54,208 nucleotides of DNA, from positions 1 through 54,208 of IMG/VR virus record IMGVR_UViG_3300029787_000063. One strand, written 5' to 3'. The DNA comes from a virus (Duplodnaviria; Caudoviricetes). Below the pieces are notes generated by a model that saw only the letters and a program-made list of their open reading frames with translations, ran no database searches and was not told the DNA's origin. The translations under genes were made by a program, and so were the position numbers. Below are positions 9,930 to 38,471 of this stretch, in pieces. Numbering within the stretch: position 1 is the stretch's first letter; each line of letters starts with the position of its first letter.

Positions 9930-10172
9930 TTATACTTTCTTTTTAGTAGAATCATAAATACCCTTAACAAGTTTAATTGTTTTCTTTGCTTTACCAAAAG
10001 GTAATATTTCGCTAACAGCTCCTTTAATAGTTTTAAACTTATCTACATATTTTTTAGTTACACCTTCCATAAAAGTACCTTTACCAGTATAAGGTTTGTA
10101 ATTTGAAAAATTATATTGTTTTTTCATTGGTGAATTTCCAAATCCCGAAAATCCTTTCATTTTATAACTCAT
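9930..10172 (-). CDS. small basic protein with N-terminal YKMKGFSGFGNSPMKK motif
   Basis: Lys-rich 80 aa; motif shared with 17063..17302. Confidence 0.7.
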   Translation of the reverse strand: MSYKMKGFSGFGNSPMKKQYNFSNYKPYTGKGTFMEGVTKKYVDKFKTIKGAVSEILPFGKAKKTIKLVKGIYDSTKKKV

Positions 10173-10624
10173 ATTACTTTGTATTTAGTTTTATTATTTT
10201 CTTTATATGCTTTTAAGCATCTATTTCTATTTTTATCAGGTGATACATAACTAACGTGTACCCAGTCAGGATTATCATTATTACCAAATTCCCATATCAT
10301 TTGATCAAAGTCTAAGTTTTCTTTTACCCACCAATACATTTCAGCGTTTGTAGCTTTACCATATGTATCGTCTATATCAATAGCTTGACCTTTACAATGT
10401 TGTGATTTAGTAGACCCGCCAATAGCTTTATTTAAATCAGGTGATCTAAAAAAGCTATTAACTTTTATTGGTCCATTTATAAATACTCTAAGCGGTTCGA
10501 ACACGTTGTTGGCAACAAGCTTCATATTCGCTAACTGCTCTTCGTTGGGTTCGTTATCTATACCTTTACGTATAGCTGTTATACTGTGTACACCTTCTTT
10601 ATAAGAAATATGTTTGCTTATCAT
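10169..10624 (-). CDS. endolysin, peptidase M15 family (Zn-dependent)
   Basis: NSFFRSPDLNKAIGG, SQHCKGQAIDI and WVHVSY Zn-binding motifs. Confidence 0.9.
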   Translation of the reverse strand: MISKHISYKEGVHSITAIRKGIDNEPNEEQLANMKLVANNVFEPLRVFINGPIKVNSFFRSPDLNKAIGGSTKSQHCKGQAIDIDDTYGKATNAEMYWWVKENLDFDQMIWEFGNNDNPDWVHVSYVSPDKNRNRCLKAYKENNKTKYKVI

Positions 10625-14887: not shown

Positions 14888-15277
14888 TTATTTCTTTTTA
14901 GTTTTTGCTTTATACTTTTTCAACATTTCTGCTTTCTGTTTAGCGGTTAATGTCTTAGCAGCAAACTTTTTATTAGCTGTTTTTGGGTTTTCTAATTTTA
15001 GTTTCATAGATGAAGCTTTTTTCATAGTAGCCATAGACTTTTTAAGCATAGCCATAGACTTTTTAAGTTTCATAGCAGACTCTTTTTTAAGCTTCATAGC
15101 AGCTTTTTTCATAGTTGCAGCTGAGTCTTTCATTTTTTTCATTTTCATAGCTGAAGCTTTTTTCATAGCGGCAGGTGATTTATCAACAGCTGCTTTAAAC
15201 TTAGGGTTATTATCTAATTTTCCAGCTGCAGAAGCTGCTTTTAAACCTTTGTTAAATTTAGTTGGTGCTTTTTTCAT
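14888..15277 (-). CDS. Lys/Ala/Met-rich histone H1-like repeat protein
   Basis: Heptad-like repeats SAMKMKK / AAMKLKK / SMAMLKK / SMATMKK. Confidence 0.75.
   Translation of the reverse strand: MKKAPTKFNKGLKAASAAGKLDNNPKFKAAVDKSPAAMKKASAMKMKKMKDSAATMKKAAMKLKKESAMKLKKSMAMLKKSMATMKKASSMKLKLENPKTANKKFAAKTLTAKQKAEMLKKYKAKTKKK
15000..15172 (-). repeat. degenerate 21-24 bp tandem coding repeats
   Basis: The exact 19-mer TAGCCATAGACTTTTTAAG occurs at 15028-15046 and 15049-15067, with degenerate flanking copies. Confidence 0.85.
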
Positions 15278-15278
15278 T

Positions 15279-15821
15279 TTAAATTTTGTTTTTTATATGT
15301 TTATACATTGAGTTACCTAGTTTCTCGCCCATTTTACTATCAGACTTATAGTGAGCTCGGGCAACTCTACGACTATAAGATATGTTTTCACCTGTTTTAG
15401 TAAAAGCTGATTTAGCTTTAGGATGTTTATCACCTAAAACTTTAGCTATTAATATACCTTGAACAGAGTGTCCTGATGGATATGATGGTGTCTTCATTGA
15501 AGACATTTCATAATCCTTCATTTTTATATTCATTTTTTTAGCTAATACTTTTGGTCTTGGCCTATTAAAATGTTTTTTTAATTCTAATATTATTGGTGCA
15601 GACTCTTTTATAAGTTTAGCAGGTATTGTTTTATCGTAATCTTTTATATTGTTATCTTTAGCTGTCTTAGCAAAAGCAGATTCAATATTATCAAATTTTT
15701 TTACAAACTCTTTTTTTAAAGGTATTTTAGATAAAGCTTTAACTTCTTGCGAGGTGTCAAATGTATTATCACCTGGTGGCTTCATTTTTTTAAAACTTGA
15801 TATGTTAAAATCTTTTAACAC
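15279..15821 (-). CDS. PAP2 superfamily (acid phosphatase/vanadium haloperoxidase-like) soluble protein
   Basis: All three motifs present: KKHFNRPRP, SYPSGH and SRRVARAHYKSD. Confidence 0.9.
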   Translation of the reverse strand: MLKDFNISSFKKMKPPGDNTFDTSQEVKALSKIPLKKEFVKKFDNIESAFAKTAKDNNIKDYDKTIPAKLIKESAPIILELKKHFNRPRPKVLAKKMNIKMKDYEMSSMKTPSYPSGHSVQGILIAKVLGDKHPKAKSAFTKTGENISYSRRVARAHYKSDSKMGEKLGNSMYKHIKNKI

Positions 15822-16030
15822 TTTCCTGCTTTTTGTGTTTTAGAAGCCCACATATTTGCGTATGCAGACGGATAAACCTTAAACTTTCTTTTTGCAGCAG
15901 CTTTACAGCTAGCACTAAGCTTAGCTAAAGCAGGGCTTGTTTTTTTTAACATTTTATTTGGATTACCCTTACCGCCGTCAGCTTTACTAGCATGTACAGC
16001 TTTTCTTTGTGCGTCACTTTTATATCCCAT
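15815..16030 (-). CDS. small basic protein (KFKVYPSAYAN motif)
   Basis: 71 aa, Lys/Ala-rich, tightly packed with its neighbours. Confidence 0.7.
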   Translation of the reverse strand: MGYKSDAQRKAVHASKADGGKGNPNKMLKKTSPALAKLSASCKAAAKRKFKVYPSAYANMWASKTQKAGKC

Positions 16031-16041
16031 AATTATTTATT

Positions 16042-16416
16042 TTAACATTTCCACCTACGTCTAGCGGCTTTACCTCTTTCACCGGTCCAACCTTTTGATC
16101 TAGCGCAAAATGATTTTCTACGTTTAGCAGCTTTACTTCCTGGTTTTACTTTACCAGTTACTGCTGTTTGTAATTTACTACCTGGATTTTTTCTTTTATA
16201 CTCAGCAACTCCTTTAGATGTCATACCAGCACCTTCTTCTACTGTTCTAAAATTACGACCTTTACCTTTAGTAGTTTTTCTAGGTTCATTGCTTTTTTGT
16301 AATGGTGAGCCACTGTTTCTACGCCTACCACAGCTAGTAACAGGAAAAGGATTATTTTTCTGCACATAACCAGCGGTTTTCTTAAACATACTATTTTGTC
16401 TTTCACTTCCAGGCAT
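16042..16416 (-). CDS. small basic protein (RRKSFCARS motif)
   Basis: 124 aa, K/R-rich; GMTSKGVAEYKRKNPGSKL...RRKSFCARS...ARRRWKC. Confidence 0.75.
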   Translation of the reverse strand: MPGSERQNSMFKKTAGYVQKNNPFPVTSCGRRRNSGSPLQKSNEPRKTTKGKGRNFRTVEEGAGMTSKGVAEYKRKNPGSKLQTAVTGKVKPGSKAAKRRKSFCARSKGWTGERGKAARRRWKC

Positions 16417-16418
16417 AA

Positions 16419-16781
16419 TTAAAAATCACTCATTAATTGATTACTTATTTCTTCTTGTACTTCTTCTCTAGTTGCTATCATTTTAAATGATAAGTCTGCT
16501 TGAAACCTTGCGACTTCTTCTCCGTCTTTAAATATAATAATAGTAGGTACTACAGCTATTTTATGTTCTTTAGCTATATCTGGATTTTTAGCTATATCTG
16601 TTGTGCCTATAGTTTTACAGTCTTCTAAATCCATAATCCATGAAACATCGTTAGCACTATTCCAACCAGCATTAAAATGTTTTACTTCTATTTGACCGTA
16701 AGCTGTGCTAGCAAAAAACACAAATAGCATTACAAATACATAAATAACATATTGTGGCCAAGCTATTTCTTGTTCTTCCAT
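16419..16781 (-). CDS. exported thioredoxin-fold protein lacking CxxC
   Basis: N-terminal hydrophobic segment. HFNAGWNSAN sits at the usual F-x-A-x-W-CxxC position, and IAVVPTIIIFKDGEEVARF is the cis-Pro thioredoxin motif. Confidence 0.8.
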   Translation of the reverse strand: MEEQEIAWPQYVIYVFVMLFVFFASTAYGQIEVKHFNAGWNSANDVSWIMDLEDCKTIGTTDIAKNPDIAKEHKIAVVPTIIIFKDGEEVARFQADLSFKMIATREEVQEEISNQLMSDF

Positions 16782-17062
16782 TATCTATTATATAATTTAT
16801 CTTCTATTTTTTCTAACGTAACTTTTATTTCTTCTACATCTTTTTGTGTAGTCATAATAGTATTACGTATCATTTGGTCTTTCATATCAAACTCCATGCG
16901 GGTTACTTCTGGATCAGGTGGCGCGGGTAATTCTTTTGCCTCAGCAATATCTGCTTGCAAAACGAACCACATACTTATAATAGTTGCCATTGCAGCACCT
17001 ATTCCTACTAAAGTTTTTATACTGATAGTAAAACCAGTGTCTTCATTTAACTCTTTAGCCAT
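16781..17062 (-). CDS. single-TM protein with C-terminal coiled coil
   Basis: TM segment TLVGIGAAMATIISMWFVL, Pro linker and heptad VEEIKVTLEKIEDKL. Confidence 0.75.
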   Translation of the reverse strand: MAKELNEDTGFTISIKTLVGIGAAMATIISMWFVLQADIAEAKELPAPPDPEVTRMEFDMKDQMIRNTIMTTQKDVEEIKVTLEKIEDKLYNR

Positions 17063-17302
17063 TTATTTTCTTTTTACTTCTGTTTTATTATATATTTTAT
17101 CTCTATCTTTTGGATTTTCAAAGTCTAAATATTTTTTCATATTATATTCAACAATAGGCTCGTCTCCTTGTGTTTTAGGATCAGAAAAGTGTTTAAATTC
17201 AGAAACACCTTTACGCATACGAGCTTGTTTAGATCTTAGCTTTGACATGTCTACATCTTTAAACCCGCTAAAACCTTTCATTTTAAATGGTCCTTTTTTC
17301 AT
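17063..17302 (-). CDS. small basic protein with FKMKGFSGF motif
   Basis: MKKGPFKMKGFSGFK; motif shared with 9930..10172. Confidence 0.7.
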   Translation of the reverse strand: MKKGPFKMKGFSGFKDVDMSKLRSKQARMRKGVSEFKHFSDPKTQGDEPIVEYNMKKYLDFENPKDRDKIYNKTEVKRK

Positions 17303-17313
17303 AATTTTTTATT

Positions 17314-18405
17314 TTAAAATATTACGTAGTTAACTCCAAGCTTAAAGTCATACCACTCTCTGTTCCAGTATTTATTGTATTTACCTTCAATAAAATACCC
17401 TAAATTTTTATTTTGTTTTATTCCATATATCAGCCCGCCTGAATAATCGTACCACTGATCATCTTCTATATAATTGTGATAGCTAAATTCACTACCATCA
17501 TTGTAATGCCAAGGCATTAAGTTACCCCAAACATGTAGCCAATTTTTCTTTGTATATTTATAATAATCAAAACCAACAACTATAGAGTGTTGTATTAATT
17601 TTTCTAATTCACTTCTTTTCTTTTGTGTATAATCAGATAACATTTCTGGTATTACAACAGCTTCCCATACCTCAGGACTCGTAGCAACTAAAGTGCCGTT
17701 AGGATCAAAGTATTGATCGTTAGCTACGTCTATAGTATAACCTTCTTGTATTGCTAGATAAGTATAATGTAAATTACCATTTGATAACATTAATTCAGCT
17801 AAAGGATCGTAACCATATGGCTCTGCTAGCCTATGAACCATACCTATATTCCAAGATAAATTTTTATGTTTTCTATATCTATATCTTTCTGATGCTTCAA
17901 AATATTCTACGTCTGCAAAACCATCTTGTAAATACTCAAACTTTAAAGCAAAAAAGTTTATACAAACTTCACTATCACAACCATCATCAGAACTCCAACG
18001 TACAAAATGATGTTGATCCATATAATCAATACCTTCTTGTCTTTTATAATCTACTTCAAATAAATATTCTAAACCTCTAACTTTACCAACTGTAGCGGCA
18101 TCACTATAATTAGTTTCAGTACCATCATAAAATGTATTAGCTTTATTTTCATAACCAAACCTAGCTATTTTACGAAGTCCAATTGTAAAATTATAATCGT
18201 AAGGTGTAGATATAGTTGTAGTTGATAACTTATTATCAACTGAAAATACTTTTACATCAGACAATGATGTACCACCGTTAATAGCAGCATAAAATGTAGA
18301 AAACTTTAATAGTTTTTTAACGTCTAGCTCTTGTGCGCAGCAACCTTTTGGAGCTGAACAAGCTGCTAAAACAACCATTAATAATATTATTATTTTTTTC
18401 ACCAC
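17314..18405 (-). CDS. putative outer-membrane beta-barrel protein (signal peptide, possible lipobox)
   Basis: MVKKIIILLMVVLAAC...AQE signal, aromatic-rich alternating strands and C-terminal YDFKLGVNYVIF; GTG start. Confidence 0.75.
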   Translation of the reverse strand: MVKKIIILLMVVLAACSAPKGCCAQELDVKKLLKFSTFYAAINGGTSLSDVKVFSVDNKLSTTTISTPYDYNFTIGLRKIARFGYENKANTFYDGTETNYSDAATVGKVRGLEYLFEVDYKRQEGIDYMDQHHFVRWSSDDGCDSEVCINFFALKFEYLQDGFADVEYFEASERYRYRKHKNLSWNIGMVHRLAEPYGYDPLAELMLSNGNLHYTYLAIQEGYTIDVANDQYFDPNGTLVATSPEVWEAVVIPEMLSDYTQKKRSELEKLIQHSIVVGFDYYKYTKKNWLHVWGNLMPWHYNDGSEFSYHNYIEDDQWYDYSGGLIYGIKQNKNLGYFIEGKYNKYWNREWYDFKLGVNYVIF

Positions 18406-18416
18406 GATACTTTTTG

Positions 18417-18429
18417 TTTATAATCACTT
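18417..18429 (-). promoter_or_regulatory. candidate phage promoter motif GTRAYTATAAA (copy 1)
   Basis: Minus strand AAGTGATTATAAA in the intergenic gap; similar to the 27576-27590 motif. Confidence 0.35.
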
Positions 18430-18433
18430 GCTT

Positions 18434-21400
18434 TTACAACGATTTACCATCTAAGGTAACTCCAAAGCTTTTCTTTTTATTTTTCTTTTTTTGTTTTTTA
18501 ATTTTTTCTTTAACAGCTTCAACTTCTTTGTTTTCAATACCAACATCCCATTTGCTCCAACCTAAACCTACAGCTAGTCTTTGCCACCACTCATTTTCAC
18601 TATTTAAAGCAGCTCTAATATTTTCAACTTTTCTATGTAATCTAGCTACAGGTATATTAGTTGCGCCTTCTATTAACTGCGCATACGCGCCCCATATAGG
18701 ATTATCTAAATCAAAAGTGTCCATTTCAGGTATTACTTTTTTATTAAACTCTAAACTTTTTTCAAAACCATCAAGTTTTCTTTTCTTAATACCTATAGGT
18801 GGTGATAATTGTATTAACTCTTCACTTATAGTATCTAATTGTTTGTTCCACTTTTTATCTTGATTTTCATGGTACTTTACTAAACCATTTTTAATAGTAG
18901 CAACTATAGCACCAGCAACACCGCTACCTCTTAATATAGTATCTATAGTACCGTTAATAACTCTATCTCTTTTACTTTTGAAAAACTTTTGTGTTTTTTC
19001 GTCTTCTTCATCGTCTTCGCTAAATAACATTGCAAACAATGCTGTTTGTAAAGCACCAAATATTATATTTTGCACGGCGCCATAATATATTATTCTTGAT
19101 ATATTAGACATATCGCTTTTAACTTGACTAGTATATGGCTTTGATTTTCTTCTATTAATTAAATCTAAGCCAGCTTTTTTAATTAATCTAACATACTGTG
19201 ATGGTGTATTTTGAAAAGCTAGTATTAATCTACCCAGTACAGATGCTTGTTGCTGTGAAATCATATCAGGTCTAGCTGACTGCTGTGTAGCTTCTGATAC
19301 TTCTTGAAAATCAGTAAATGCTTTTGCTTCTGCTTCTTTTTGTGATAAGCCGTGTGACTTATATGTGTTAACTCTATTACGATACATACCAGCACCACCT
19401 AATGATATTGCAAAACTATCAGCCATTTGTGTAGGTAAAAAACCTATTTGTAATAAATATTTTACAGCGGCCCTAACTTTACCAGCTGCTGTTTTTGATC
19501 TACCTACAGCTGAAGCTATTTCGTTAGCATTAATATCAAAAGCAACACCAGCTCTTCTTTGTTTTAATACATCAGAATTAAATATCATGCTAAAGTCTTT
19601 CCAAAACTGTGGTTGATTAGCAAACGCTGCCGACGCTTTAAATATATTGTTATCACCAAAGTTTATAAAGTTAACAGTAGATAACGTCTGTAATACAGCT
19701 GATCTAGCATTAAAAAACATTGTAGCACCAATAGATCCATTTAAATAATCTAAAAAGCCATTTACTATTTTGTTTGGCCCAACAGTTCTATTAGTACCAT
19801 TTTTAGTTCTATATAATATATCTTTTAACGCTTCTTTAAAATCAGCACCATATGCAGCTTCTATTTTATTTAAATTTTCTTTATTAAATATTATATCAGC
19901 GTTTTCTTGAAACTCGTTAAAAAACTTAGCCCTACCAACTCTCCCTGTAGCATCTGCTAAATCTGTTCTTATATCACCAGCTTCCCAATGTTCACCTGGC
20001 TCTATATAACCCTCATCCATTCTAGATATTTTACCAATAGTATCTGCAAAAGCTTGTAACTCAGGATCGTTTTTAACTAAATCAGATAATTCTTTTACAT
20101 CGGTTTTTGAAGTACCAGGTATTTCAAAACCAGCTTTATCCCACAAATAAACTCTAACAGCATCTGAATAATAGTAATCACCATCAGGTGTTTTATTTGT
20201 AAGTTTTTTACGTAAATCAGGAAACTGTTTTATTAAGTTTTTATAATCAGTAGCTATAGCTTGCTTAGCAGCTGTTAATTCTTGATACGCTCTGTTTAAT
20301 GGTTTAAGTAAAGCTTGTTCAAAAAACGCTCTATGTTTATTACCTTTTTCACCTTTACCCATAAAGTTGTAAAGTAAACCAGAAAAGTCTTCGTGTGATG
20401 GTGGTACAAAAAATCTAAACTTACCTTTGCCTTCACCACGTTTTCTAGCTTTTGTTTGTGAGTATCTTTTCTTTGATTCAATACCAGTAACGTCTTGTAA
20501 TATTTTATTAAACTCACTATCCATATCTTTACTAAACTGTACTTTAGCTTGTTGTATTTTTGATTTAACATCAAATTGATCAAGCATGTTTTTAACAGCT
20601 TGTACGTTTTGTAATGCGTCGTCTGCAAAATAAAAGTCATTATAACCTTCAGATACTTTATCAGCCATCCAAAGCGCTTTAGCTTCACTAGTACTATTAC
20701 CTAAACCAGTTATATTTTTTAAAGGTATGTTTAAGCCGTTAGCTTTTAAAAAGTCAAATATAGCTTGTTGAGCAGCAGGTGGTCTAGCAGTTAATACAAA
20801 CATGTTTTCTGGACCAAACTTCTTTTGTAGCTTTAATGCTTTATTAAATAATGGCGCTAATTTACCTTTTACAACTCTATTAAAATCTGAAAAGTCAAAC
20901 GTATAACCTTGATCTTGTAAGTCTTGATACGTGCTAGCAAACTGTTCAGCGTTTAAAGTACCTGTCTCACCATCTGGCGATGTGTATTTAACTAAAGACT
21001 CTGTTGTTGCTAATGTATCATCAAAGTCTAATACTGTAATGCCTTTAGCTTCTTTTGAATAACTTGTAGTTCTAGCTTTCAAAGCGGCATTACTAAGTTT
21101 ATTGTTTTTGTTTATATCTTTACTAAAACTTAATTTAGAAATAAATTCACCATATCTAGGTGCAACTTCACCAGCTAATTGTTTTATGATAATTTCGTTT
21201 TGTAAATCTATATTAGCAGAACCATCTTTGTACTTAATATTGTTTACGCCAAAAAATTCAGCTATAGTTACTCCTTCTTTTGCAAAAACATACATGTTTA
21301 AATCTATACCAGAAGCAGCTAATCTAACAACGGATGCATAACCATTAGGAAGTTTAAGTTCTCCACTTAAAAGTCTAGGAACAATTTTTTCATAATAAAT

Positions 21401-29765: not shown

Positions 29766-32700
29766 TTAAGCTAATATATGTGAACAACCAACTGATATTG
29801 GACCATAAGTATACTCACATTCATCAGGATATGTTGTTATTTTTACTTCGTAATAAGTTGGATTACCATGTCCAAAACCGTCTACAGGGTTACCATAATT
29901 ACCGTCTATACCAGCTGTTACGCCACCAGGTAAAGTTTGTTGATTCCAAGTAACACCACCAGGAATATTAAATGTTTGTCCATCGTTAGGAGTACTTAAT
30001 AAAATTTTTCCACTACTAATAAAAGGAGGTGTTATTTGATATATTTCAGCTGTAAAGCTAGTAGCACCAACAGATGAAGATATTACATTAAAATTAACAC
30101 TTCCATTACAACAATTGTTTCCAAGTGTTATATTACAAACAGAAGGTATTGTAGTAACACCGTTAGCGTTTGTACCTTGAGAATCAACTACTAAGTTTGA
30201 CGTATTACAAGGTCCTGGTGGTGGAGGTGGAGCGCCAACGCAAGGAATAGTTACAATTTCTGTTACACCACAACCATCTACAGGATTAGTCATTTCTATT
30301 TCATAATCACCAGCAACTAAATTAGGCGCAGCATAGTTAGTAGAACCGTTATGAGATGATGTTAGTATATTAATACCTGATTGTGTTAAGTTTAAAGGAG
30401 TAGGTGTTAATCTTTTAACTTTAAGTAAAATATCTGATGTTATGTTAGTCCAAAAAATTTGTATCATACCACCATCAAGCGGATTATTTACGCCACAATC
30501 TGGTTGTATAGCTGGAGTTATAACAATATTATGTGAAAATAAGTTTGCAGGATTACAAGGTATTTGTGTACAATCAGATTGGCAATGCGTAAGTGCATCG
30601 CTAAACCCAGCAGATATAGCAGAAGAATTAGTATATTGTCCTAAACCAGTACCAGGATCATAACAAGTATATGGAGGTATATTACCAACGCCTGGTATGT
30701 TTATTCCACTAGCACCTGAACAATCGTAAGTAATAGACGTAGGTGGAACATTATATTCACAACTACAATCAGGTGTATTAGCAGCTGGATAATAATTATT
30801 AGCAGGACCAATCCAAGTTGGAGGTCTAAGTTGTGTTATGTACGGATCTGTTGTATTACCATCATCCATACAACCTGGAATAACAGGTGTAGGTGATGTT
30901 AAGTTTTGACAACCGTAAAGATAAGCTTCACCTTCATCGCAGCATAAGCTAGTAATTACACATTCACAGTACGTTGAGAAGCTACCGCTACCATCACCTG
31001 GATCTAAGCATTGACCATTTATACACTCGTATGTTTCTTCGTTTAATCCGCAAACAGCTTCGCAAGCTGATAAAGTAGGAAACTCACCATCTTGATCTTG
31101 CCTTTCAACACATGAAAAACCAGCACTACTACAAGGAGTTCTATGCATGTGACCAATTGAGAGATAATTACCTAAACCTTCTTGAGTTCCTATAGTTGGC
31201 ATTTCGCCTATAGAATTTACTTCAGATTTAAAATTAGCCCAAGACATACCGTTGTAAAAATTACCATTATACGGTGCAGCACTATAGTGAGTTGAGAAAT
31301 AATCTATTGCTTCTTGTGCTGTTAAAAAATATGTAACATTTCCAGCTGTAAGTGTGCTAGGAGCAGGTGAATAAGGAGTGTGTTTAAGAGGGGCAGGCGT
31401 TGCGTACCAGCCACCTGTAAAATCAACTCCATTTATCTGATAAAAATGGTCTGAGATCGTATCGGTCAAAGATGTAAAACCTTGTATTGCAACACCTTGG
31501 ATTTCATGATAGTCATCCCAAAATTTTAACGTTGGGTTTTGCCAAAAATATTCCCAAATTTGATCTATTACATCATTAAGACCATCTCTGTTTCCAGTAG
31601 GACCTGGGCCTATTGTTCCAGTAAATACTTGTCCACTAGCCTGTTGATAATGTGTCGTTGGATTAGGAGGTGTACCTAAACCAAGACTACTATAAATTTC
31701 TCCCCAAAATATAGAATCATAACCTTGTTCTTTATTATTAAGATCTAATCCATAATAACCATTCCAACCAATGCACTCCGTGCAATCATAAGAAGTATAA
31801 CCACCACTAATTATAGTTACCGCTTCAGTTCTATCTATACCTTGGTATGAAAACTCTCTTGTATCTATATTACCAGCTTTACCATCATCTAACCACTCAG
31901 TAGTTACACCTTTTATTTGTGAAAACCATTTACCTTCTTTTTCTTTAAACTCTTGCATACCACCTTCTTGCAAGTTAGTTAACATATTACTTACGTACCA
32001 GCCAGCATGTAAATAGTTATCCCAATATTCACCAGAGTTTAGCGTGTCAGGTGTTACTCTTGATTGTGTACCTTCATAATTTAAAGTATTAAAACTTTTA
32101 ACTGACTCAGGCGCTTCGTTAAATAACACTTCAATACTAGAATCATACTGATCGCCGTAAAAATTATTTCTTGGTTGAGATTCTACGTGATGTTCGTGTA
32201 AATGTCCTTCTTTAAACGTGTAGTAAGTATTGTTTAAACTAACACCACTTTCTTGTGCCCACGATTTAAAACTTGTCCAACCTTTTGCTCTTTCAGAAAA
32301 GCTTACAGTTGTATCGTAGTTACCACTAATATTAGTGTATGTTGAAACAGGATCAGGTTGAGTACCAAGAGCAACATGAGTTTGCCAAGCGCTAGGACTA
32401 GGACCAAACAAAGATACTACGTCTGTAAAAGCAGGCTCTGGATTAACAGTTAGTATTAGCTGACTAAAGTTAACAGTAACGCTAGTTACTACTGTATTAG
32501 GTGCTAAACCAGGACCGTTTAAAACCATACCTGCAGTAATAGCTTGTTGAGAAGAAGTTATTATACGACCAGTTGGTATATCATAGTTTCCACCACAACC
32601 ACAATTTTGACCTTCTATTTCAACTATAAAGTTATCAATAATATGTACAGGTTGTGCTACAGGATATTCGTTGTAATCTAATGTTAAATTATATTCATCT

Positions 32701-35700
32701 TTCTTTTCATCAAAGCTACCAATTAATCTATTAGCTAGTTTTAAATTATCAGCAAAATAATCACCCATACCAAAGTCTGATATTGGTGTAATACCATCTT
32801 GTGATAATCTTAACACTTGACCTCTAACTTTGTCTGCAAAATAAGATCTATAAGATTCGTTAACAAAAGACTCTGGATTTTTAGATATACCAAAATCACC
32901 AGCATAAGGTATTGTTTGGCCTAATACTCTGTCAGTAGCTGTAACATTAGTATTACCATCAGCATTAAATAAAGCGTCTTTATTAGCTAATATTTTAAAT
33001 ACTTTGTCTTCACAAAGCGTAACTAAATTTGTATTTCTAGCGTATAACTTTTGTATTGTACCATAAGAAGGATTTAAATCTTTTGTAATTTTTTCTGCTT
33101 GTATAAACTGGTTTAAATTATTTATACCAGACATTGAATTATATATACCTGAGTAAATTAAACCACTACCTCTTCTTTCTTCTTCATATGGTTCTTCTAA
33201 TGTGGTAGATGCTTTTGGTCCGTTATCTATAGTAACTTGATTAAAGTCATCACGCACTCTATCAGACTCAACTCCATTACCAAACGAGTAACAGTTATGC
33301 CAAGGTAGTGTAACTTTGTAATTATGTAAATTTCTATCTAACTCTATTTCACCAGTAAAAGCATTTACGTTTAATACGCTAGTTTCTGTTTTACCACCAT
33401 CAGCTCTTACAAAAGTTAGTATATCACCAATTAAAGGTAATAAAGCATTTGGATTATTACCTATGCTTAAAGGTTCGCCGTCAATATTGCACAATGTTAA
33501 TACGTTGTCTACTATACTTTGAACTCTAATATCTATAACAGGTCCTCCAGTAACACTAGCGTCTGTAGATAAAACTCTTAAAGCTCCACTAGGATTAGTA
33601 TTTGGATTAGGGTCATAACAATTAACTTTACTATTATAACGAGCTAAATCAAAAGATCTATGTACAGGCCCTACAAACTGCTCACCTGTTTTTTCGTTTA
33701 ATTCTATTGGATATATTTGTCCAACTTCATAATATATGTTTAAATCTACGTTTTCTTTTGGTTCAGTTTCAAATATAGCTGGATTTGTACTAGAATACTT
33801 TTCAGTATCATCAGTAACATAAGGAGATACAATTTGCCAAGTACAACTACCTGGAAATTTAGCCGCACCAGAAGTACCTTCTTTAGTTGGACCAGCAGGA
33901 ACAACTACACCACCTATAGAATATCCAGAATAAACACCATCAGAACGTATACCAGGAGCAGGTGTTGGTGGTAAGGCTGTGCCAGTTTTTAATACACTAC
34001 TACTATCAAAATGTGGTGTTAAATGCGGATTGTTAGTAGGTAAATACATAGATCCTTTTTCGCCTAAGCCTGACCCATCTTCATAAGCCTCGGCAACAAT
34101 CATGTATCTTCTTCTTCTGTTTATACCTTTCCACCAGTCTTTTACATACATTGGCCAAAAACCATGAGCTCGATTAGTGTCAGTTGGTCGTGTAATAGTG
34201 CTAGGCGCTTGTTCCCAACCACCACAACTATTAGCTTGATTGTTTATCGGATTCATTATTCTTGTAACCCAAGATCCAATAGCACTATTATTTGTTCTAA
34301 AAGACATACCAACATTTGTTATGCTTTTACCTATTTCTTGACTGTATCTCCAGTTTACTTGATCTTGACCTGTACCAGTTGCGTCTGAATAAAAATTATA
34401 TTCTGTAAAATAAACAGGAGCTGTAGAAGCACTATGACTTTTAATACCACCTGAAACCCACCAACCCGTGTCTACGATATTACTAGAAGTAGAATCAAAG
34501 AACAAATAAAGATCATCACACCAATCACCAAGTCTACAATAATTATAAAGACCAATACCTGGTTTAGAATCAATTGTATCAATAGTTCTAAAATTAATAT
34601 CTATTTCTCTTTGTGTTATACCCCAAGCCGTTAAATTTGCAGGATCAGGTGTTATTGTTTTATATAATCTTTGATCAGGATCTTCTGACCATCTCCAAAC
34701 AGTATTAGGCGTAGTTAAAAGATTTATAAATACAATGTCTTCAACGTGTTTAGCTAAAGTAGGATCTACATAATCAAAATGTAAAACTAAATCAGCCATA
34801 GTATCACCTTCGCCTGGCGCATCTTTTCCATTTACATCTGTACCATCAAGATCTTCACCAACTCCAGAATGAGATATTGTTATTATACCAGTGCCTTGAT
34901 AACTATTAACACCACCAACTAAACCACTATGATCTGGATTTACTCCACCAGCATTAGCATGGCCATCAATACCTAAAGACTGTATTATCTCACCACCATT
35001 ACTAGCTAAATTACCAAAATTAGCTTGGTCTTGTAAATAACCATTTAAACCTGTTCTAAGAACCGTTTGGTTTATATAATCTGCAGCTCCATTTATATTA
35101 TTAGCTGCTGCAAAAGCATTAAAATCATCACGATTAGGCGTATCTCTTACGCCAGTTGGAGATATTAAATAGTCTGGCTCTCCATTAGGACCTGTACCTT
35201 TATAAGAAGGGCCATTTATACCCCCAGCGTTTCCTCCTGTATACAAGTAATTACGAGTGTGAGATGTTTGTGAAGTAGCGGTACCCATAACCACAGGCAT
35301 ATCGTATCTGTTCATAGCATTAGTTTGCCCGTTTTGACTAGAAAACCAATTGTGTTTTGGAAACCATCTTAAACTTGCTGATTGATGAAAATGATCATCG
35401 AGTGTACTATTAGCAAAATCTCTTGTTACCCAAGGATCTTGATTTCTTAATTTAAAATAATGCTCTGTAGTTTTAAACCTTCTAAATCCTTCAACTCTAT
35501 CAATAAACCAACCTGAAGAATTAGCATCTCCATCGGCTAAATTATGACTAGCTTTACTCCAAAACTCTTGTCCATTTTCTCTACGCATATCAGCGTCATA
35601 ATTAGATTCACCTTGATTTTCAGAAATACTAATACCTCTTCTGTCTTGACCAAAAAAATGAGCTTCACTACCTTTTGAAAAATTAGAATCAGGATTTATA

Positions 35701-38471
35701 TATTGTACTCGTCTAGATGCTATGACTTGCCAATCAAGCGCGCTTGATATATTTTTTATTAAACTTTGTTCTAGTTGACTATCTCTTTTTATTTTAACAA
35801 AAAATCTACCATCAAACTCTGGTTTGTTTTCAACTATTCTTCTTCTTAGCTCAGCACTACCACCACCAGTATAAGTATTTATAGTACCATCTGCAGAAAG
35901 CACTTGAACGTCTGATTCAAACTTTTTAAATATATCAAACCTATAATCTGCTGTTTGATCTTTAATGCCTTTTATTCTATACCAATTACTAGCAAAATTA
36001 TTACCAGTAGAAGCTGTGCCAATAAATCTAATATCAAAATCTTTTAACGGCGCTGGATCTGATGCTGGAAAAGAAGGGTCAAGATTTAATATTTGAGTCC
36101 AACCAGAAGTTTCTACTAAAGTTTTGTCTATAGTCACAAACTTACCATCTAACTCTGGAAAACCAGTACCACCAGCCCCACCTAAATCAAAAGGCGAAGC
36201 TGTTTTTGTGTCAATTAAAACAGGTTGTTGAAGGTTAGTTGTTTTAATAAATAGTGGAGCTTCATTTTCTATTGCTATAACTTTATATCTAGCTGGAGAA
36301 TCAACAAAAACATCTGTATCGTGTTCTTTTTTAAGTATTAAAAATGTTTCTTCATTTATTTTATTTCTTTCAGACGAAGGAAAACTAATCCATATATTAC
36401 CATCTTCAGCGTTATACCAACGATCCATTGCTAAGTTATAATACTCACTTGATGTTTCTTTAACAAAAAATTTATATGATTTAGCCCACTCAGGATGTGT
36501 GTTGTATAATTGTGCTTCTAATTTATTTTTTTTATCAGCAATTATTTTTTCTAAATATAAAGAAGCCTTGTCTATTGTGCTATTAGAAAATACAGGTGTT
36601 TCTCTACCATACTCATCTATATAAGCAACACCTAGTTGATATGTTCTTAATGTTTTTACAGATCTAGTAGGAGAATAATAATTTTCATTATTATAAAAAG
36701 CATCTATTTGTTCAGGTAATAAATTAGGCGTCATAATATTATTTGAACTAACAGAAACTTTTACATCAACAGATATTTTTGATTCTGGATCTAATTCACC
36801 AAAATTAAACTCACTATAGTGTTGTAATGCTTTTGAGTTAACAGCAAACCTATTAAACATGTTATAGTTTTGCAAATAATTACCATATACTAATCTGTTA
36901 CCTACAACTTCTTGAGCTAAAGCTACTCTTGGTACGTTATCATACGGTCTTAATAATTGATTAGCAGGCAAAATAGCATGTATCATTTCTGATGTTATTC
37001 TAGTCCAGCCTCTAGTAAATTGACTAGATACTAAACCATTAGCAGTACCTGTTGTTCTTGGGCCAACAGCATTCCACTCACTATAATTAGTTGTAGCATC
37101 ATCTAAACTTGTTATATTATTAGACCAAGGTTCAAAACCTGGTACCCAGTCGTTTTCTAAACGCTTTATAGTTTTTACAGTATATATGTTTGGTGAGTTA
37201 GACTCTTTATAAAGTATATCTACAGATATAACGTCGTCTGGTATAGACTGTCCGTGTACAAAATCTTTTATAGCTAAAAATCTTAGATTATTAACCATAC
37301 CTAGATTATAACCTTCTTTTGGTAAATAATCAAACTCTTGAGGTAAAAATGCTACTTGTGAAAAAGGTGAAAAAGAAGAGTACTCACCATCTTCATATTT
37401 ATATCTTATACCAAACCTAGGAAATTTAAATTGAAATAAAGGTTCTGCTTGTTCTAGCTCTACATACCACTCATTATTTGCAGATATTAAATTTTTATCT
37501 CCAGACAATATTTTTAATATAGCCGCACCAGTAACTATATCATAAGTTGTTATTTCTGCTCTAACATATTTTGTTTTTTCTGACTGTAGCAAATATGAAG
37601 TAGAAGCTGAAGATTCATCGCTGTATATATTTATTATATCGCCAATTATAAAGTCTGGAAAACCAACTAAAGCACCAGCTGATATAAAGTTTAAACTATA
37701 GTTTTGTATTGGATCACTATTAGTGTCAAAAAAAGCATCTGTAGAATTAAAACTACCAGTTATATTTAAAGCGTAGCTAGCTCCAAATTGAGTTGGTAAT
37801 TGCCCTTGTTCTTCTCTAAGTTTATTACGCATTTCTAAAACAGGTGGAGCTGGTGGGCTTTTCTTTATAACAGTTACATGCTCATGAGTTAAATCACCTT
37901 TAGGATAATATTCTATATTAGCGTTGTTAGTTGATATATCTCTTACATATAATTGCGTTTGGCTTGTAAAATTAGGTGTACCTAATTTACATCTATCAAT
38001 ATGTATTCTTTTTGGTTCTGAATAGTTATCAGTCCAAAACAACATATTTTCTATTATGTTAATACCTGTAATTGTAAATGCTCTATCGAAATTTAATACT
38101 CTACCGCTTTCATTTCCCGGTATAGTTCCTGCAGGAAACAGGTCTACAACAACGGGTGTTGTTGTTTGTGTTTTGTAATCATATTCAGCTATTATATCAG
38201 AAGTACTACCAGCTAGCATCCAATATATTTTATCATGCTGTTCATTAACTATGCTACCAACACAATAAAAATCACCATTATTATTAGGATCAATTGTTAT
38301 TAGCGACATATTTAAATTACCCATAACTGTTTGCACAGTACCCATATCAGAAGTATCTGACGTAGCAACTTCTATGTTTAACGCATCTCTATATTCACCG
38401 TTAGGTACTAGTCTCTCATCAAGGTCTTTGTTCATACGACCTGATGAAAATCTATGATTCAGATTTGGCAT
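29766..38471 (-). CDS. tail nozzle/muzzle ('stabilization', P22 gp10-like) protein with large insertions and a Cys-rich C-terminal extension
   Basis: 2901 aa; N-terminal GRMNKDLDERLVPNGEYRDALN, LFWTDN, FGNGVESDRVRDDFN, FGISKNPESF and FKEKEGKWF blocks; follows the ring proteins. Confidence 0.8.
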   Translation of the reverse strand: MPNLNHRFSSGRMNKDLDERLVPNGEYRDALNIEVATSDTSDMGTVQTVMGNLNMSLITIDPNNNGDFYCVGSIVNEQHDKIYWMLAGSTSDIIAEYDYKTQTTTPVVVDLFPAGTIPGNESGRVLNFDRAFTITGINIIENMLFWTDNYSEPKRIHIDRCKLGTPNFTSQTQLYVRDISTNNANIEYYPKGDLTHEHVTVIKKSPPAPPVLEMRNKLREEQGQLPTQFGASYALNITGSFNSTDAFFDTNSDPIQNYSLNFISAGALVGFPDFIIGDIINIYSDESSASTSYLLQSEKTKYVRAEITTYDIVTGAAILKILSGDKNLISANNEWYVELEQAEPLFQFKFPRFGIRYKYEDGEYSSFSPFSQVAFLPQEFDYLPKEGYNLGMVNNLRFLAIKDFVHGQSIPDDVISVDILYKESNSPNIYTVKTIKRLENDWVPGFEPWSNNITSLDDATTNYSEWNAVGPRTTGTANGLVSSQFTRGWTRITSEMIHAILPANQLLRPYDNVPRVALAQEVVGNRLVYGNYLQNYNMFNRFAVNSKALQHYSEFNFGELDPESKISVDVKVSVSSNNIMTPNLLPEQIDAFYNNENYYSPTRSVKTLRTYQLGVAYIDEYGRETPVFSNSTIDKASLYLEKIIADKKNKLEAQLYNTHPEWAKSYKFFVKETSSEYYNLAMDRWYNAEDGNIWISFPSSERNKINEETFLILKKEHDTDVFVDSPARYKVIAIENEAPLFIKTTNLQQPVLIDTKTASPFDLGGAGGTGFPELDGKFVTIDKTLVETSGWTQILNLDPSFPASDPAPLKDFDIRFIGTASTGNNFASNWYRIKGIKDQTADYRFDIFKKFESDVQVLSADGTINTYTGGGSAELRRRIVENKPEFDGRFFVKIKRDSQLEQSLIKNISSALDWQVIASRRVQYINPDSNFSKGSEAHFFGQDRRGISISENQGESNYDADMRRENGQEFWSKASHNLADGDANSSGWFIDRVEGFRRFKTTEHYFKLRNQDPWVTRDFANSTLDDHFHQSASLRWFPKHNWFSSQNGQTNAMNRYDMPVVMGTATSQTSHTRNYLYTGGNAGGINGPSYKGTGPNGEPDYLISPTGVRDTPNRDDFNAFAAANNINGAADYINQTVLRTGLNGYLQDQANFGNLASNGGEIIQSLGIDGHANAGGVNPDHSGLVGGVNSYQGTGIITISHSGVGEDLDGTDVNGKDAPGEGDTMADLVLHFDYVDPTLAKHVEDIVFINLLTTPNTVWRWSEDPDQRLYKTITPDPANLTAWGITQREIDINFRTIDTIDSKPGIGLYNYCRLGDWCDDLYLFFDSTSSNIVDTGWWVSGGIKSHSASTAPVYFTEYNFYSDATGTGQDQVNWRYSQEIGKSITNVGMSFRTNNSAIGSWVTRIMNPINNQANSCGGWEQAPSTITRPTDTNRAHGFWPMYVKDWWKGINRRRRYMIVAEAYEDGSGLGEKGSMYLPTNNPHLTPHFDSSSVLKTGTALPPTPAPGIRSDGVYSGYSIGGVVVPAGPTKEGTSGAAKFPGSCTWQIVSPYVTDDTEKYSSTNPAIFETEPKENVDLNIYYEVGQIYPIELNEKTGEQFVGPVHRSFDLARYNSKVNCYDPNPNTNPSGALRVLSTDASVTGGPVIDIRVQSIVDNVLTLCNIDGEPLSIGNNPNALLPLIGDILTFVRADGGKTETSVLNVNAFTGEIELDRNLHNYKVTLPWHNCYSFGNGVESDRVRDDFNQVTIDNGPKASTTLEEPYEEERRGSGLIYSGIYNSMSGINNLNQFIQAEKITKDLNPSYGTIQKLYARNTNLVTLCEDKVFKILANKDALFNADGNTNVTATDRVLGQTIPYAGDFGISKNPESFVNESYRSYFADKVRGQVLRLSQDGITPISDFGMGDYFADNLKLANRLIGSFDEKKDEYNLTLDYNEYPVAQPVHIIDNFIVEIEGQNCGCGGNYDIPTGRIITSSQQAITAGMVLNGPGLAPNTVVTSVTVNFSQLILTVNPEPAFTDVVSLFGPSPSAWQTHVALGTQPDPVSTYTNISGNYDTTVSFSERAKGWTSFKSWAQESGVSLNNTYYTFKEGHLHEHHVESQPRNNFYGDQYDSSIEVLFNEAPESVKSFNTLNYEGTQSRVTPDTLNSGEYWDNYLHAGWYVSNMLTNLQEGGMQEFKEKEGKWFSQIKGVTTEWLDDGKAGNIDTREFSYQGIDRTEAVTIISGGYTSYDCTECIGWNGYYGLDLNNKEQGYDSIFWGEIYSSLGLGTPPNPTTHYQQASGQVFTGTIGPGPTGNRDGLNDVIDQIWEYFWQNPTLKFWDDYHEIQGVAIQGFTSLTDTISDHFYQINGVDFTGGWYATPAPLKHTPYSPAPSTLTAGNVTYFLTAQEAIDYFSTHYSAAPYNGNFYNGMSWANFKSEVNSIGEMPTIGTQEGLGNYLSIGHMHRTPCSSAGFSCVERQDQDGEFPTLSACEAVCGLNEETYECINGQCLDPGDGSGSFSTYCECVITSLCCDEGEAYLYGCQNLTSPTPVIPGCMDDGNTTDPYITQLRPPTWIGPANNYYPAANTPDCSCEYNVPPTSITYDCSGASGINIPGVGNIPPYTCYDPGTGLGQYTNSSAISAGFSDALTHCQSDCTQIPCNPANLFSHNIVITPAIQPDCGVNNPLDGGMIQIFWTNITSDILLKVKRLTPTPLNLTQSGINILTSSHNGSTNYAAPNLVAGDYEIEMTNPVDGCGVTEIVTIPCVGAPPPPPGPCNTSNLVVDSQGTNANGVTTIPSVCNITLGNNCCNGSVNFNVISSSVGATSFTAEIYQITPPFISSGKILLSTPNDGQTFNIPGGVTWNQQTLPGGVTAGIDGNYGNPVDGFGHGNPTYYEVKITTYPDECEYTYGPISVGCSHILA

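Follow-up and report, generated by a model that had tools for sequence, protein, structure and literature searches.

The subject of this analysis is a group of three minus-strand genes in the viral genome IMGVR_UViG_3300029787_000063; the window, that is, the whole stretch of DNA that we analysed, is the entire linear IMG/VR record of 54,208 bp (CheckV completeness ~95%). The genes encode a predicted outer-membrane β-barrel of 363 residues (p363), a predicted single-pass membrane protein of 93 residues (p93), and a predicted exported protein of 120 residues with a thioredoxin fold (p120). A first-pass annotation, made from the sequence alone, had described these co-oriented genes as an envelope cassette interrupted by an open reading frame (ORF) with a KMKGFSGF tag; all four ORFs are present and tightly packed, with the 79-aa tagged ORF between the barrel and p93 genes (Table 1). 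The successive gaps are 11, 0, and −1 nt, and the stop codon of p93 overlaps the start codon of p120. All four ORFs are real genes; in a metagenome protein database, the barrel has 3776 homologues at E ≤ 1e-3 and the thioredoxin-like protein has 5728. The candidate promoter that had been placed ahead of the barrel gene did not hold up: the gap between the barrel gene and the stop codon of the preceding gene, which encodes a 2300-aa protein, is 28 nt and contains no listed σ70-like site. Across positions 15500–19500, σ70-like sites are not enriched (26 found vs 17.9 ± 5.2 expected) in a scan that does not model Bacteroidota promoters, and no terminator-like sites were found.

The first-pass annotation had proposed conservation of the gene neighborhood as a check on whether the three genes belong together, and we performed it with two sets of viral contigs. 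Clade 1 comprises 80 contigs with close homologues of the barrel, in which the partners were identified with tblastn; clade 2 comprises 80 contigs in which the barrel is ~34% identical, with the partners identified with profile hidden Markov models (HMMs). In clade 1, p93 is found in 73 of the 80 loci and the thioredoxin-like gene in 71; wherever a partner is missing (nine loci), the locus ends shortly past the barrel or p93. The corresponding counts in clade 2 are 68/80 and 65/80; in five long loci with no apparent partners, both are encoded elsewhere on the contig (5/5), and the remaining misses are truncated loci. When the search was started from a clade-2 thioredoxin-like protein, all three genes were present in each of 14 newly fetched loci. 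Thus, the trio co-occurs wherever there is enough DNA to test, and it does so in two clades. The genes encoding p93 and the thioredoxin-like protein are adjacent or overlapping in every locus. In 47 of 72 clade-1 loci, the barrel gene precedes p93 with a gap of 0–19 nt; in three clade-1 loci it is located downstream of p93, and in clade 2 it is 0.5–3.7 kb upstream. The trio is encoded both by contigs with a large terminase (TerL) that is 62–63% identical to that of the window and by ~89-kb contigs with a TerL that is only 22–23% identical.

Searches of other sequence collections place the trio in viruses. Profiles for each of the three genes matched 5/5 viral contigs and 0/5 cultured or complete relatives (MW202828, elemoA, phi18:3, phi38:1, and Gundel_1). 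In tblastn searches of 50,697 phage records, the barrel has no match at E ≤ 1e-3, and the thioredoxin-like protein retrieves ordinary phage thioredoxins only, and weakly (best E 7e-3). A degenerate DNA motif scan of 185,579 species-representative genomes gave 82 matches; of the 80 loci that were fetched, one is a true instance, a 43-kb contig (L247) that is binned with a Flavobacteriales metagenome-assembled genome and has all three genes adjacent. This is probably a phage contig that was binned with its host, that is, a weak hint about the host. A single-protein scan of genome contigs gave 23 pattern matches, none a true relative. When 1.84 billion cluster representatives were searched, 304 relatives of the barrel were identified at E ≤ 1e-3, including full-length proteins with 29–40% identity; the ten distant clusters that we looked up are all metagenomic, and their longest contigs do not exceed 43 kb. 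The nearest protein-atlas clusters of both the barrel and p93 are labeled 100% viral. As far as its anatomy is concerned, the trio is well supported as a virus-only, co-inherited envelope module of marine Flavobacteriia phages.

The window TerL matches 87 phage records, and every host stated in these is a member of the Flavobacteriia: 68 are Flavobacterium ‘elemo’ podoviruses, 15 are phages of Cellulophaga, 2 of Tenacibaculum, and 1 of Maribacter; the 87th is an uncultured freshwater genome (63.6% identity). PHROG annotation of the window describes one long minus-strand late operon with the order holin-like protein, terminase, portal, virion proteins, two giant proteins (2901 aa, then 2300 aa), the trio, accessory genes, an M15-family endolysin, and a fiber-like protein; the left end of the window is a plus-strand replication/nucleotide block (helicase, ThyX, MazG, and RNR).

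The outer-membrane barrel that the first-pass annotation had recognized in the 363-aa protein is supported, as a prediction, by AlphaFold2 (AF2) modeling and fold searches. The AF2 model, calculated with a 30-sequence alignment, has a predicted local distance difference test (pLDDT) score of 73 and a predicted template-modeling score (pTM) of 0.69; it contains 13–14 long strands of 9–16 residues, a low-confidence stretch at residues 81–104, and a helix-containing insertion of ~75 residues (~195–269). When the model is compared with known structures with VIA-align, the closest neighbors are Tsx (Z 14.7; root-mean-square deviation 3.8, 197 residues aligned), NanC (Z 13.9), and KdgM (Z 13.7), with autotransporter translocators (Z 10.7–13.2), FapF (Z 10.8), and LpxR (Z 10.8) as further neighbors. 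Foldseek also identifies NanC (E 2.8e-6) and FapF, and in both searches the strong PDB matches are all outer-membrane barrels; in a library of viral structures (BFVD), a 342-aa viral protein without a name ranks first (E 7.7e-23), ahead of phage porins, autotransporter domains, and outer-membrane proteins (OMPs). Pfam, PHROG, and NCBIfam contain no match to the barrel or to 29 of its relatives, and the profile of the barrel family has no match among the PDB sequences at E ≤ 10.

The termini of the family are those of an exported barrel. Among 150 full-length homologues, the last residue is Phe or Tyr in 147 (the window protein ends with Phe), and 140 have a small-x-small-Gln site of the type cleaved by signal peptidase I (SPI). 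The N-terminus of p363 is hydrophobic and contains a lipobox-like LAAC followed by the Q site; a lipobox-like motif is present in only 42 of the 150 homologues, so the lipobox in the window protein is not a trait of the family (these counts for signals and lipoboxes were obtained with sequence-pattern scans, not with a trained predictor). We predict that p363 is a Sec-exported outer-membrane barrel with 12–14 strands and a BAM-type aromatic C-terminus. The first-pass annotation had also drawn attention to an insertion in the barrel and to a C-x4-C pair; the insertion is found in the model, and the pair, although present in the window (residues 143–148), is clade-specific rather than a feature of the family, because it is located within a 10-residue insertion that occurs in 51 of 74 clade-1 barrels and in 0 of 76 clade-2 barrels. 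The most conserved stretch of the barrel (G76, R78, K79, F83, Y85, Y93, G95 ... G111, E113, and Y114) coincides with the segment that AF2 cannot place, and this makes the loop at ~80–110 a candidate for binding a partner. If the barrel has 14 strands, this loop and the C-x4-C turn would be periplasmic, and the 195–269 insertion would face outward.

Two other identities for the barrel were considered and discarded. Conserved S274, H291, and D320 prompted a comparison with catalytic outer-membrane enzymes (OMPLA, PagL, and LpxR), and the strand register does not appear to fit those enzymes. The leads from the protein atlas (DUF6850, Phage_OMP at 0.93, and CymA) have too few features in common with the barrel and were not confirmed by Pfam.

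For p120, Pfam identifies Thioredoxin at residues 57–98 (E 2.9e-5); the NCBIfam thioredoxin model TIGR01068 also matches (E 3.8e-6), with a score (27) that is far below its cut-off (96.8). In the AF2 model (pLDDT 83.8), a signal helix precedes a canonical thioredoxin fold, and in a Foldseek search of the PDB, the top 50 matches are all thioredoxins (template-modeling scores of ~0.5–0.66). The WNSAN sequence that the first-pass annotation had noticed at the position of the CxxC is present, and W-N-x-x-N is found in 72/72 clade-1 sequences; its conclusion that p120 cannot be a classical dithiol oxidoreductase also stands, as both Cys positions are Asn in all of these and in 18/18 sequences that sample both clades. 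In the latter (29–71% identity to the window protein), Q30, F36, W40, N41, N44, P79, T80, I82, and F120 are invariant. Because the residues of the thioredoxin groove (the Trp and cis-Pro79-Thr80) are retained while both Cys are fixed as Asn, the substitution suggests a selected state and not decay. From its sequence, p120 should be unable to perform thiol chemistry and is most likely a non-covalent peptide holder; we predict a binding function in the periplasm without redox activity.

Cleavage at the predicted SPI site of p120 would leave Q30 as the N-terminal residue. An N-terminal Gln following SPI cleavage is described as the ‘Q-rule’ of Bacteroidetes (PMC5837995, PMC10653852), and a further report notes phage proteins that obey this rule for Porphyromonas phages (PMC10367356). 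The invariant Q30 therefore supports both the export of p120 and a Bacteroidota host. The Cys in the signal region is not conserved, so p120 is not a lipoprotein.

The third member, p93, has a conserved acidic N-terminus (KELNEDT), one hydrophobic segment (~17–36), an EF-MKDQMIR motif, and a charged, helical-looking tail; E7, K16, E57, K61, and R66 are invariant. It is predicted to be a single-pass inner-membrane protein, and this architecture, as far as it can be read from the sequence, resembles that of an i-spanin. The family libraries (Pfam, PHROG, and NCBIfam) provide no solid match. When 15 members of the family were compared with PHROG, all matches were weak: phrog_20984 (function unknown) in seven members (best E 4.2e-5), the Rz-like spanin families phrog_7686 in one (E 5.8e-4) and phrog_739 in one (E 0.015), and a holin/anti-holin family in one (E 0.0047). 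The protein-atlas leads for p93 (DUF2730 and DUF7365) were rejected, having too few features in common with it and no confirmation from Pfam.

The tagged ORF has no homologue in any of the 80 clade-1 loci and is a lineage-specific insertion outside the conserved module. In other clade-1 loci (e.g., L018, L024, L063, L064, L073, and L074), the same slot between the barrel and p93 is occupied by small basic ORFs that differ from it but begin with a similar tag. The tag (~M-x-[FY]-K-M-K-G-x-S-G-F-G-N-S-P-x-K) is common to small, very basic, otherwise unrelated proteins; the window encodes two such proteins, both on the minus strand (17063–17302 and 9930–10172). Such a tag, attached to bodies that vary, might serve in packaging or targeting.

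The main new result is the genomic context of the trio in the relatives. In clade 2, a homologue of the M15 endolysin of the window is located −3 to +3 nt after the thioredoxin-like gene in 26 of 65 loci, and a homologue of the holin-like protein is located ≤1.2 kb downstream of it in 21 of 65; for one clade-2 example, PHROG identifies both the endolysin (E 9e-31) and the holin (E 2.3e-22). In L131, a different type of endolysin (phrog_33083, E 8.5e-13) occupies the slot after the thioredoxin-like gene and is followed by a holin. Two clade-1 variants also bring the trio together with lysis genes: the order in L017 is p93, thioredoxin-like protein, a staphylococcal-nuclease homologue, a protein with a MAM domain, barrel, endolysin, and holin, and that in L059 is barrel, p93, thioredoxin-like protein, MAM protein, endolysin, one ORF, and holin. 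Other genes that directly follow the thioredoxin-like gene (126 loci) encode small basic proteins (45), the staphylococcal-nuclease homologue (20), and MAM-type proteins (12). The nuclease homologue (Pfam SNase, E 3.4e-13; e.g., L096 9741–10175 and L017 3130–3474) is absent from the window.

The first-pass annotation had suggested that the trio could be a non-canonical substitute for a spanin. This idea gains from the endolysin and holin adjacency in the relatives and from a crude pattern scan of ORFs of ≥30 aa on the coding strand of the window, which found no small lipoprotein of the o-spanin type; it loses in that the adjacency is not found in the window itself. The only credible lipobox on that strand, by the same kind of scan, is the one in the barrel. 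A recent survey reports Bacteroidetes phages with unimolecular spanins only (PMC12596118). The closest complete relative, MW202828.1 (L162), in which the trio is absent, has a lysis cassette at 15013–16558 with the order holin-like protein (150 aa; phrog_199, E 9.3e-6), a 207-aa protein, and an M15 endolysin; the 207-aa protein, which has a hydrophobic anchor at its N-terminus, is beta-rich in its C-terminal half, and has no family match, may accomplish this lysis step in another way.

The interpretation that we place first, with confidence that stays short of even, is that the trio acts as a spanin-like module in the outer-membrane step of lysis. We favor this function because the coupling to endolysin and holin recurs across sub-lineages and includes one replacement by a non-orthologous endolysin, because the predicted build of p93 resembles that of an i-spanin, and because no spanin is recognizable. 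According to this proposal, the trio would be produced late in infection, together with the virion and lysis genes, and would operate at the last step of lysis, after the holin and endolysin, in place of spanins. With p93 as the inner-membrane anchor and the barrel as its outer-membrane counterpart, the thioredoxin-like protein would bridge or regulate the two, perhaps by gripping the barrel loop at ~80–110 or the tail of p93, and the outer membrane would be breached once the peptidoglycan is gone. Lipoprotein sorting differs in Bacteroidota, and a barrel in place of a lipoprotein anchor would suit these hosts. Complex prediction with residues 31–120 of the thioredoxin-like protein as the partner of barrel residues 28–363 and of p93 residues 37–93 gave a score of 0.00 (vs a mark of 0.32), which argues neither for nor against binding. 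The more specific claim, that the trio is a new class of outer-membrane disruption in Bacteroidota phages, that is, a three-part, barrel-anchored equivalent of the spanins in which p93 would be a coiled-coil protein of the inner membrane and p120 a redox-dead adaptor, is one that we regard as doubtful at present.

Several observations weigh against a role in lysis. In the window, the endolysin is 5.8 kb from the trio, with the accessory genes between them, and the holin-like gene is ~35 kb away at the head of the operon; also, conservation of gene order in the late operon can keep the trio beside lysis genes without a shared function. The p93/thioredoxin-like pair stays beside the endolysin and holin, whereas the barrel is more often beside the gene for a Cys-rich exported protein. 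The charges that flank the hydrophobic segment of p93 do not fix its topology, and the spanin matches in its family are weak and restricted to 2 of 15 members. The periplasmic part of p93 (~57 aa) together with the thioredoxin domain looks short for spanning the periplasm, and spanins are not known to rely on a β-barrel or a soluble adaptor.

The Cys-rich exported proteins are of two types. In the window, an 867-aa protein has an N-terminal MAM domain followed by ~20 repeats (G-C-x-D-x-x-A-x-N-Y-[ND]-x-x-A-x-x-D-[DN]-G-S-C) that have no Pfam match; MAM-type homologues are encoded by 58 of the 80 clade-1 loci, and in L017 and L041, the MAM gene overlaps the start of the barrel gene. In at least 57 of the 80 clade-2 loci, the gene after the barrel gene encodes a different exported protein, ‘X’ (148–310 aa), with a gap of 1–4 nt in 45 of these 57. 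The Q-rule signal of X is accompanied by a Cys-rich N-terminal region, which weakly matches LDL-receptor-A (E 0.0036, below the cut-off), and by 60–150 acidic, beta-prone residues with alternating D-T-[IV]-x-E-x-E-Y-[IV] repeats, the number of which determines the length of X; from their sequence, these repeats look beta-solenoid- or amyloid-like. The first-pass annotation had suggested that the trio may work with a protein 2 kb downstream that resembles proteins of the type IX secretion system (T9SS), and this link was not supported. No model for the T9SS C-terminal domain (CTD) matches the 867-aa protein, on which Pfam identifies MAM only and NCBIfam gives nothing at E ≤ 0.1, and none matches X; PorP/SprF (PF11751) matches 0 of 30 members of the barrel family at E ≤ 0.5, and a six-frame scan of the window with this model gave nothing at E ≤ 10. 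PorV is a neighbor of the barrel model with a Z of only 7.3. To the eye, the C-termini of MAM and X (in MAM, the final ~35 residues) resemble the end strands of the T9SS sorting domain, a likeness that the models do not confirm. A sorting tail common to both proteins was also considered and rejected, since an HMM for the X tail misses the MAM tails and a BLASTP comparison of MAM with X was negative.

The association with these proteins is the basis for the alternative that the trio is an apparatus for export, folding, or surface anchoring of the adjacent Cys-rich protein (MAM in clade 1 and X in clade 2); the barrel would be its outer-membrane partner or channel, the thioredoxin fold a non-covalent holdase like the b' domain of PDI, and the product would alter the surface of the infected cell. 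The near-contact of the X and barrel genes, the overlap of the MAM and barrel genes, the frequency of MAM-type genes in clade 1, the LDL-receptor-A-like Cys motif and long acidic repeats of X, and the presence of 12-strand secretion barrels (autotransporters and FapF) among the structural neighbors are all consistent with it; however, there is no homology to PorP/SprF, only a distant likeness to PorV, and no T9SS CTD on either protein, MAM and X are unrelated, so that the ‘cargo’ is not one family, and a disulfide-rich protein of 867 aa would not pass through a barrel of 12–14 strands. We consider this alternative unlikely. If instead only p93 and the thioredoxin-like protein are lysis proteins, as a holin/antiholin-like or endolysin-regulating pair, with the barrel serving a separate purpose, the constant adjacency of these two genes would be explained, as would the fact that they, and not the barrel, abut the endolysin and holin; the weak holin/anti-holin match of one p93-family member also fits. 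The layout would be comparable to that of T and RI in phage T4, in which a protein with one membrane pass and a periplasmic domain is accompanied by a binder secreted into the periplasm. The barrel is nevertheless present in every tested genome that has the pair, and the window already has a separate holin-like gene, so we judge this division of the trio to be quite improbable.

Two further alternatives center on the barrel. In superinfection exclusion or receptor masking, a phage barrel would block a receptor in the style of Lom and LamB, with p93 and the thioredoxin-like protein as helpers, and would either protect the infected cell or stop progeny from adsorbing to debris. Barrels encoded by phages are common, to judge from the porins, autotransporter domains, and OMPs in BFVD and from a preprint that counts 1,603 OMPs in huge phages and cites the blocking of LamB by lambda Lom (bioRxiv 10.64898/2026.10.24.761521); the absence of the trio from five of five cultured or complete relatives agrees with such an accessory function. 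Masking leaves unexplained both the constant co-occurrence with the membrane protein and the NxxN thioredoxin fold and the translational coupling of the thioredoxin-like gene to the endolysin; moreover, the barrel is ~80% identical across many contigs, and an arms race over receptors would more likely diversify it. On balance, masking seems improbable to us. The barrel could also be an auxiliary nutrient channel, a specific porin (for nucleosides, if Tsx-like, or for acidic sugars, if NanC/KdgM-like) that boosts uptake for replication. The identity of the best structural neighbors, the near-invariant Arg and Lys residues of the barrel (R78, K79, R122, R136, R174, and R192), and the RNR, ThyX, and MazG genes of the phage would agree with uptake, but the barrel gene is late in the operon beside lysis genes and is co-conserved with two proteins that are not transporters, and likeness of fold among small barrels says nothing about substrate; this function is very improbable.

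Compared with the Rz/Rz1-type spanins of lambda, the trio is similar in being located beside holin and endolysin genes in many relatives, in having a small, predicted single-pass inner-membrane protein with a charged helical tail that looks extracytoplasmic (p93), and in its proposed role, disruption of the outer membrane; it differs in including a 363-aa barrel and a soluble thioredoxin fold, in having no small lipoprotein, and in the lack of significant sequence homology. Other phage outer-membrane barrels (lambda Lom, the OMPs of huge phages, and cyanophage Phage_OMP/DUF680) share with p363 a predicted Sec-exported, BAM-type barrel; unlike these, p363 is larger (12–14 strands), has a helical insertion and no Pfam family, always occurs with the genes for the membrane protein and the NxxN thioredoxin fold, and is linked to lysis genes. 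The model of p363 aligns with Tsx, NanC/KdgM, autotransporter β-domains, and FapF with Z of 10.8–14.7 over 170–215 residues; the sequences are only 8–11% identical, and the ~75-residue insertion and the loop at 80–110 have no noted counterpart in those proteins.

Relative to classical thioredoxin (PF00085/TIGR01068), p120 retains the fold, the Trp that precedes the active site, and the cis-Pro-Thr loop, and it differs in the replacement of W-C-G-P-C by W-N-x-x-N in all 72 + 18 sequences and in its SPI/Q-rule export signal. A parallel for such a protein is provided by TraF and TrbC of the F plasmid, which are described as thioredoxin folds without CxxC that are non-redox parts of the trans-envelope type IV secretion machine (PMC10939261). 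Like these, p120 is predicted to be a periplasmic thioredoxin fold without catalytic Cys; it differs in being encoded by a phage rather than serving conjugation and in having Asn invariantly at both Cys positions, and the comparison is one of fold.

The window encodes several other proteins in the vicinity of the trio (Table 1). The 2300-aa giant has a zincin-like H-E-F-M-H motif in its translation, and its sole match is phrog_32588 over residues 50–482. The PAP2-like protein has three visible PAP2 motifs and neither a signal peptide nor a transmembrane segment; homologues occur in 26 of the 80 clade-1 loci. Homologues of the three tandem small proteins follow the thioredoxin-like gene in eight clade-2 loci.

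Table 1. Features of the window and of related loci (positions are those of the window unless a locus is named).
Feature	Position	Strand	Basis or context
p363, predicted outer-membrane barrel, 363 aa	18405..17314	minus	ORF, AF2, and fold searches
KMKGFSGF ORF, 79 aa, basic	17302..17063	minus	ORF
p93, predicted single-pass membrane protein, 93 aa	17062..16781	minus	ORF, hydrophobic segment
p120, predicted exported thioredoxin-fold (Trx-like) protein, 120 aa	16781..16419	minus	ORF, Pfam, AF2
M15-family endolysin	10169..10624	minus	phrog_894 E 4.3e-27; Peptidase_M15_3 E 7.4e-14
Holin-like membrane protein, 128 aa	51434..51820	minus	phrog_3427 E 6.5e-32; GTA_holin_3TM E 3.9e-4, below its cut-off
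Exported Cys-rich MAM protein, 867 aa	11922..14525	minus	Pfam MAM E 2.4e-23
Giant virion-region proteins, 2300 aa and 2901 aa	18434-25336 and 29766-38471	minus	ORFs
PAP2-superfamily phosphatase-like protein, 180 aa	15279-15821	minus	Pfam E 1.4e-6; NCBIfam PhoC E 5.2e-6, far below its cut-off
Three tandem small proteins, 144, 145, and 120 aa	10626-11920	minus	similar N-termini M-A-T-x-x-A-T-[IV]-S-I; no family match
X protein, examples	L115 5322-6089; L085 7017-7802		clade-2 loci, directly after barrel gene

In the literature that we searched (few subscription journals and no supplementary tables), there is no account of the trio, of its link to lysis, or of an NxxN thioredoxin fold. Outer-membrane barrels encoded by phages and thioredoxin folds without Cys are kinds of protein that are already known; the barrel family, the NxxN fold, the fixed association with the membrane protein, and the link to lysis in Bacteroidota phages were not found in that literature. 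The trio adds two new protein families, a phage outer-membrane barrel and a thioredoxin fold with invariant Asn-x-x-Asn, and the latter would provide a natural case in which the substrate groove of thioredoxin is reused for non-redox binding. With thousands of homologues, the trio is abundant in ocean metagenomes, restricted to viruses, and, in many lineages, physically linked to the genes for endolysin and holin. Little is understood of how Bacteroidota phages pass the outer membrane during lysis, and the trio is a concrete, testable candidate for the missing step. If its proposed function is correct, the trio would join spanins, disruptin peptides, and LysB-type esterases as a fourth strategy, one that completes lysis where lipoprotein spanins are absent; if the assignment to lysis is wrong, the trio would still mark a conserved rebuilding of the envelope late in infection by marine flavobacterial phages.

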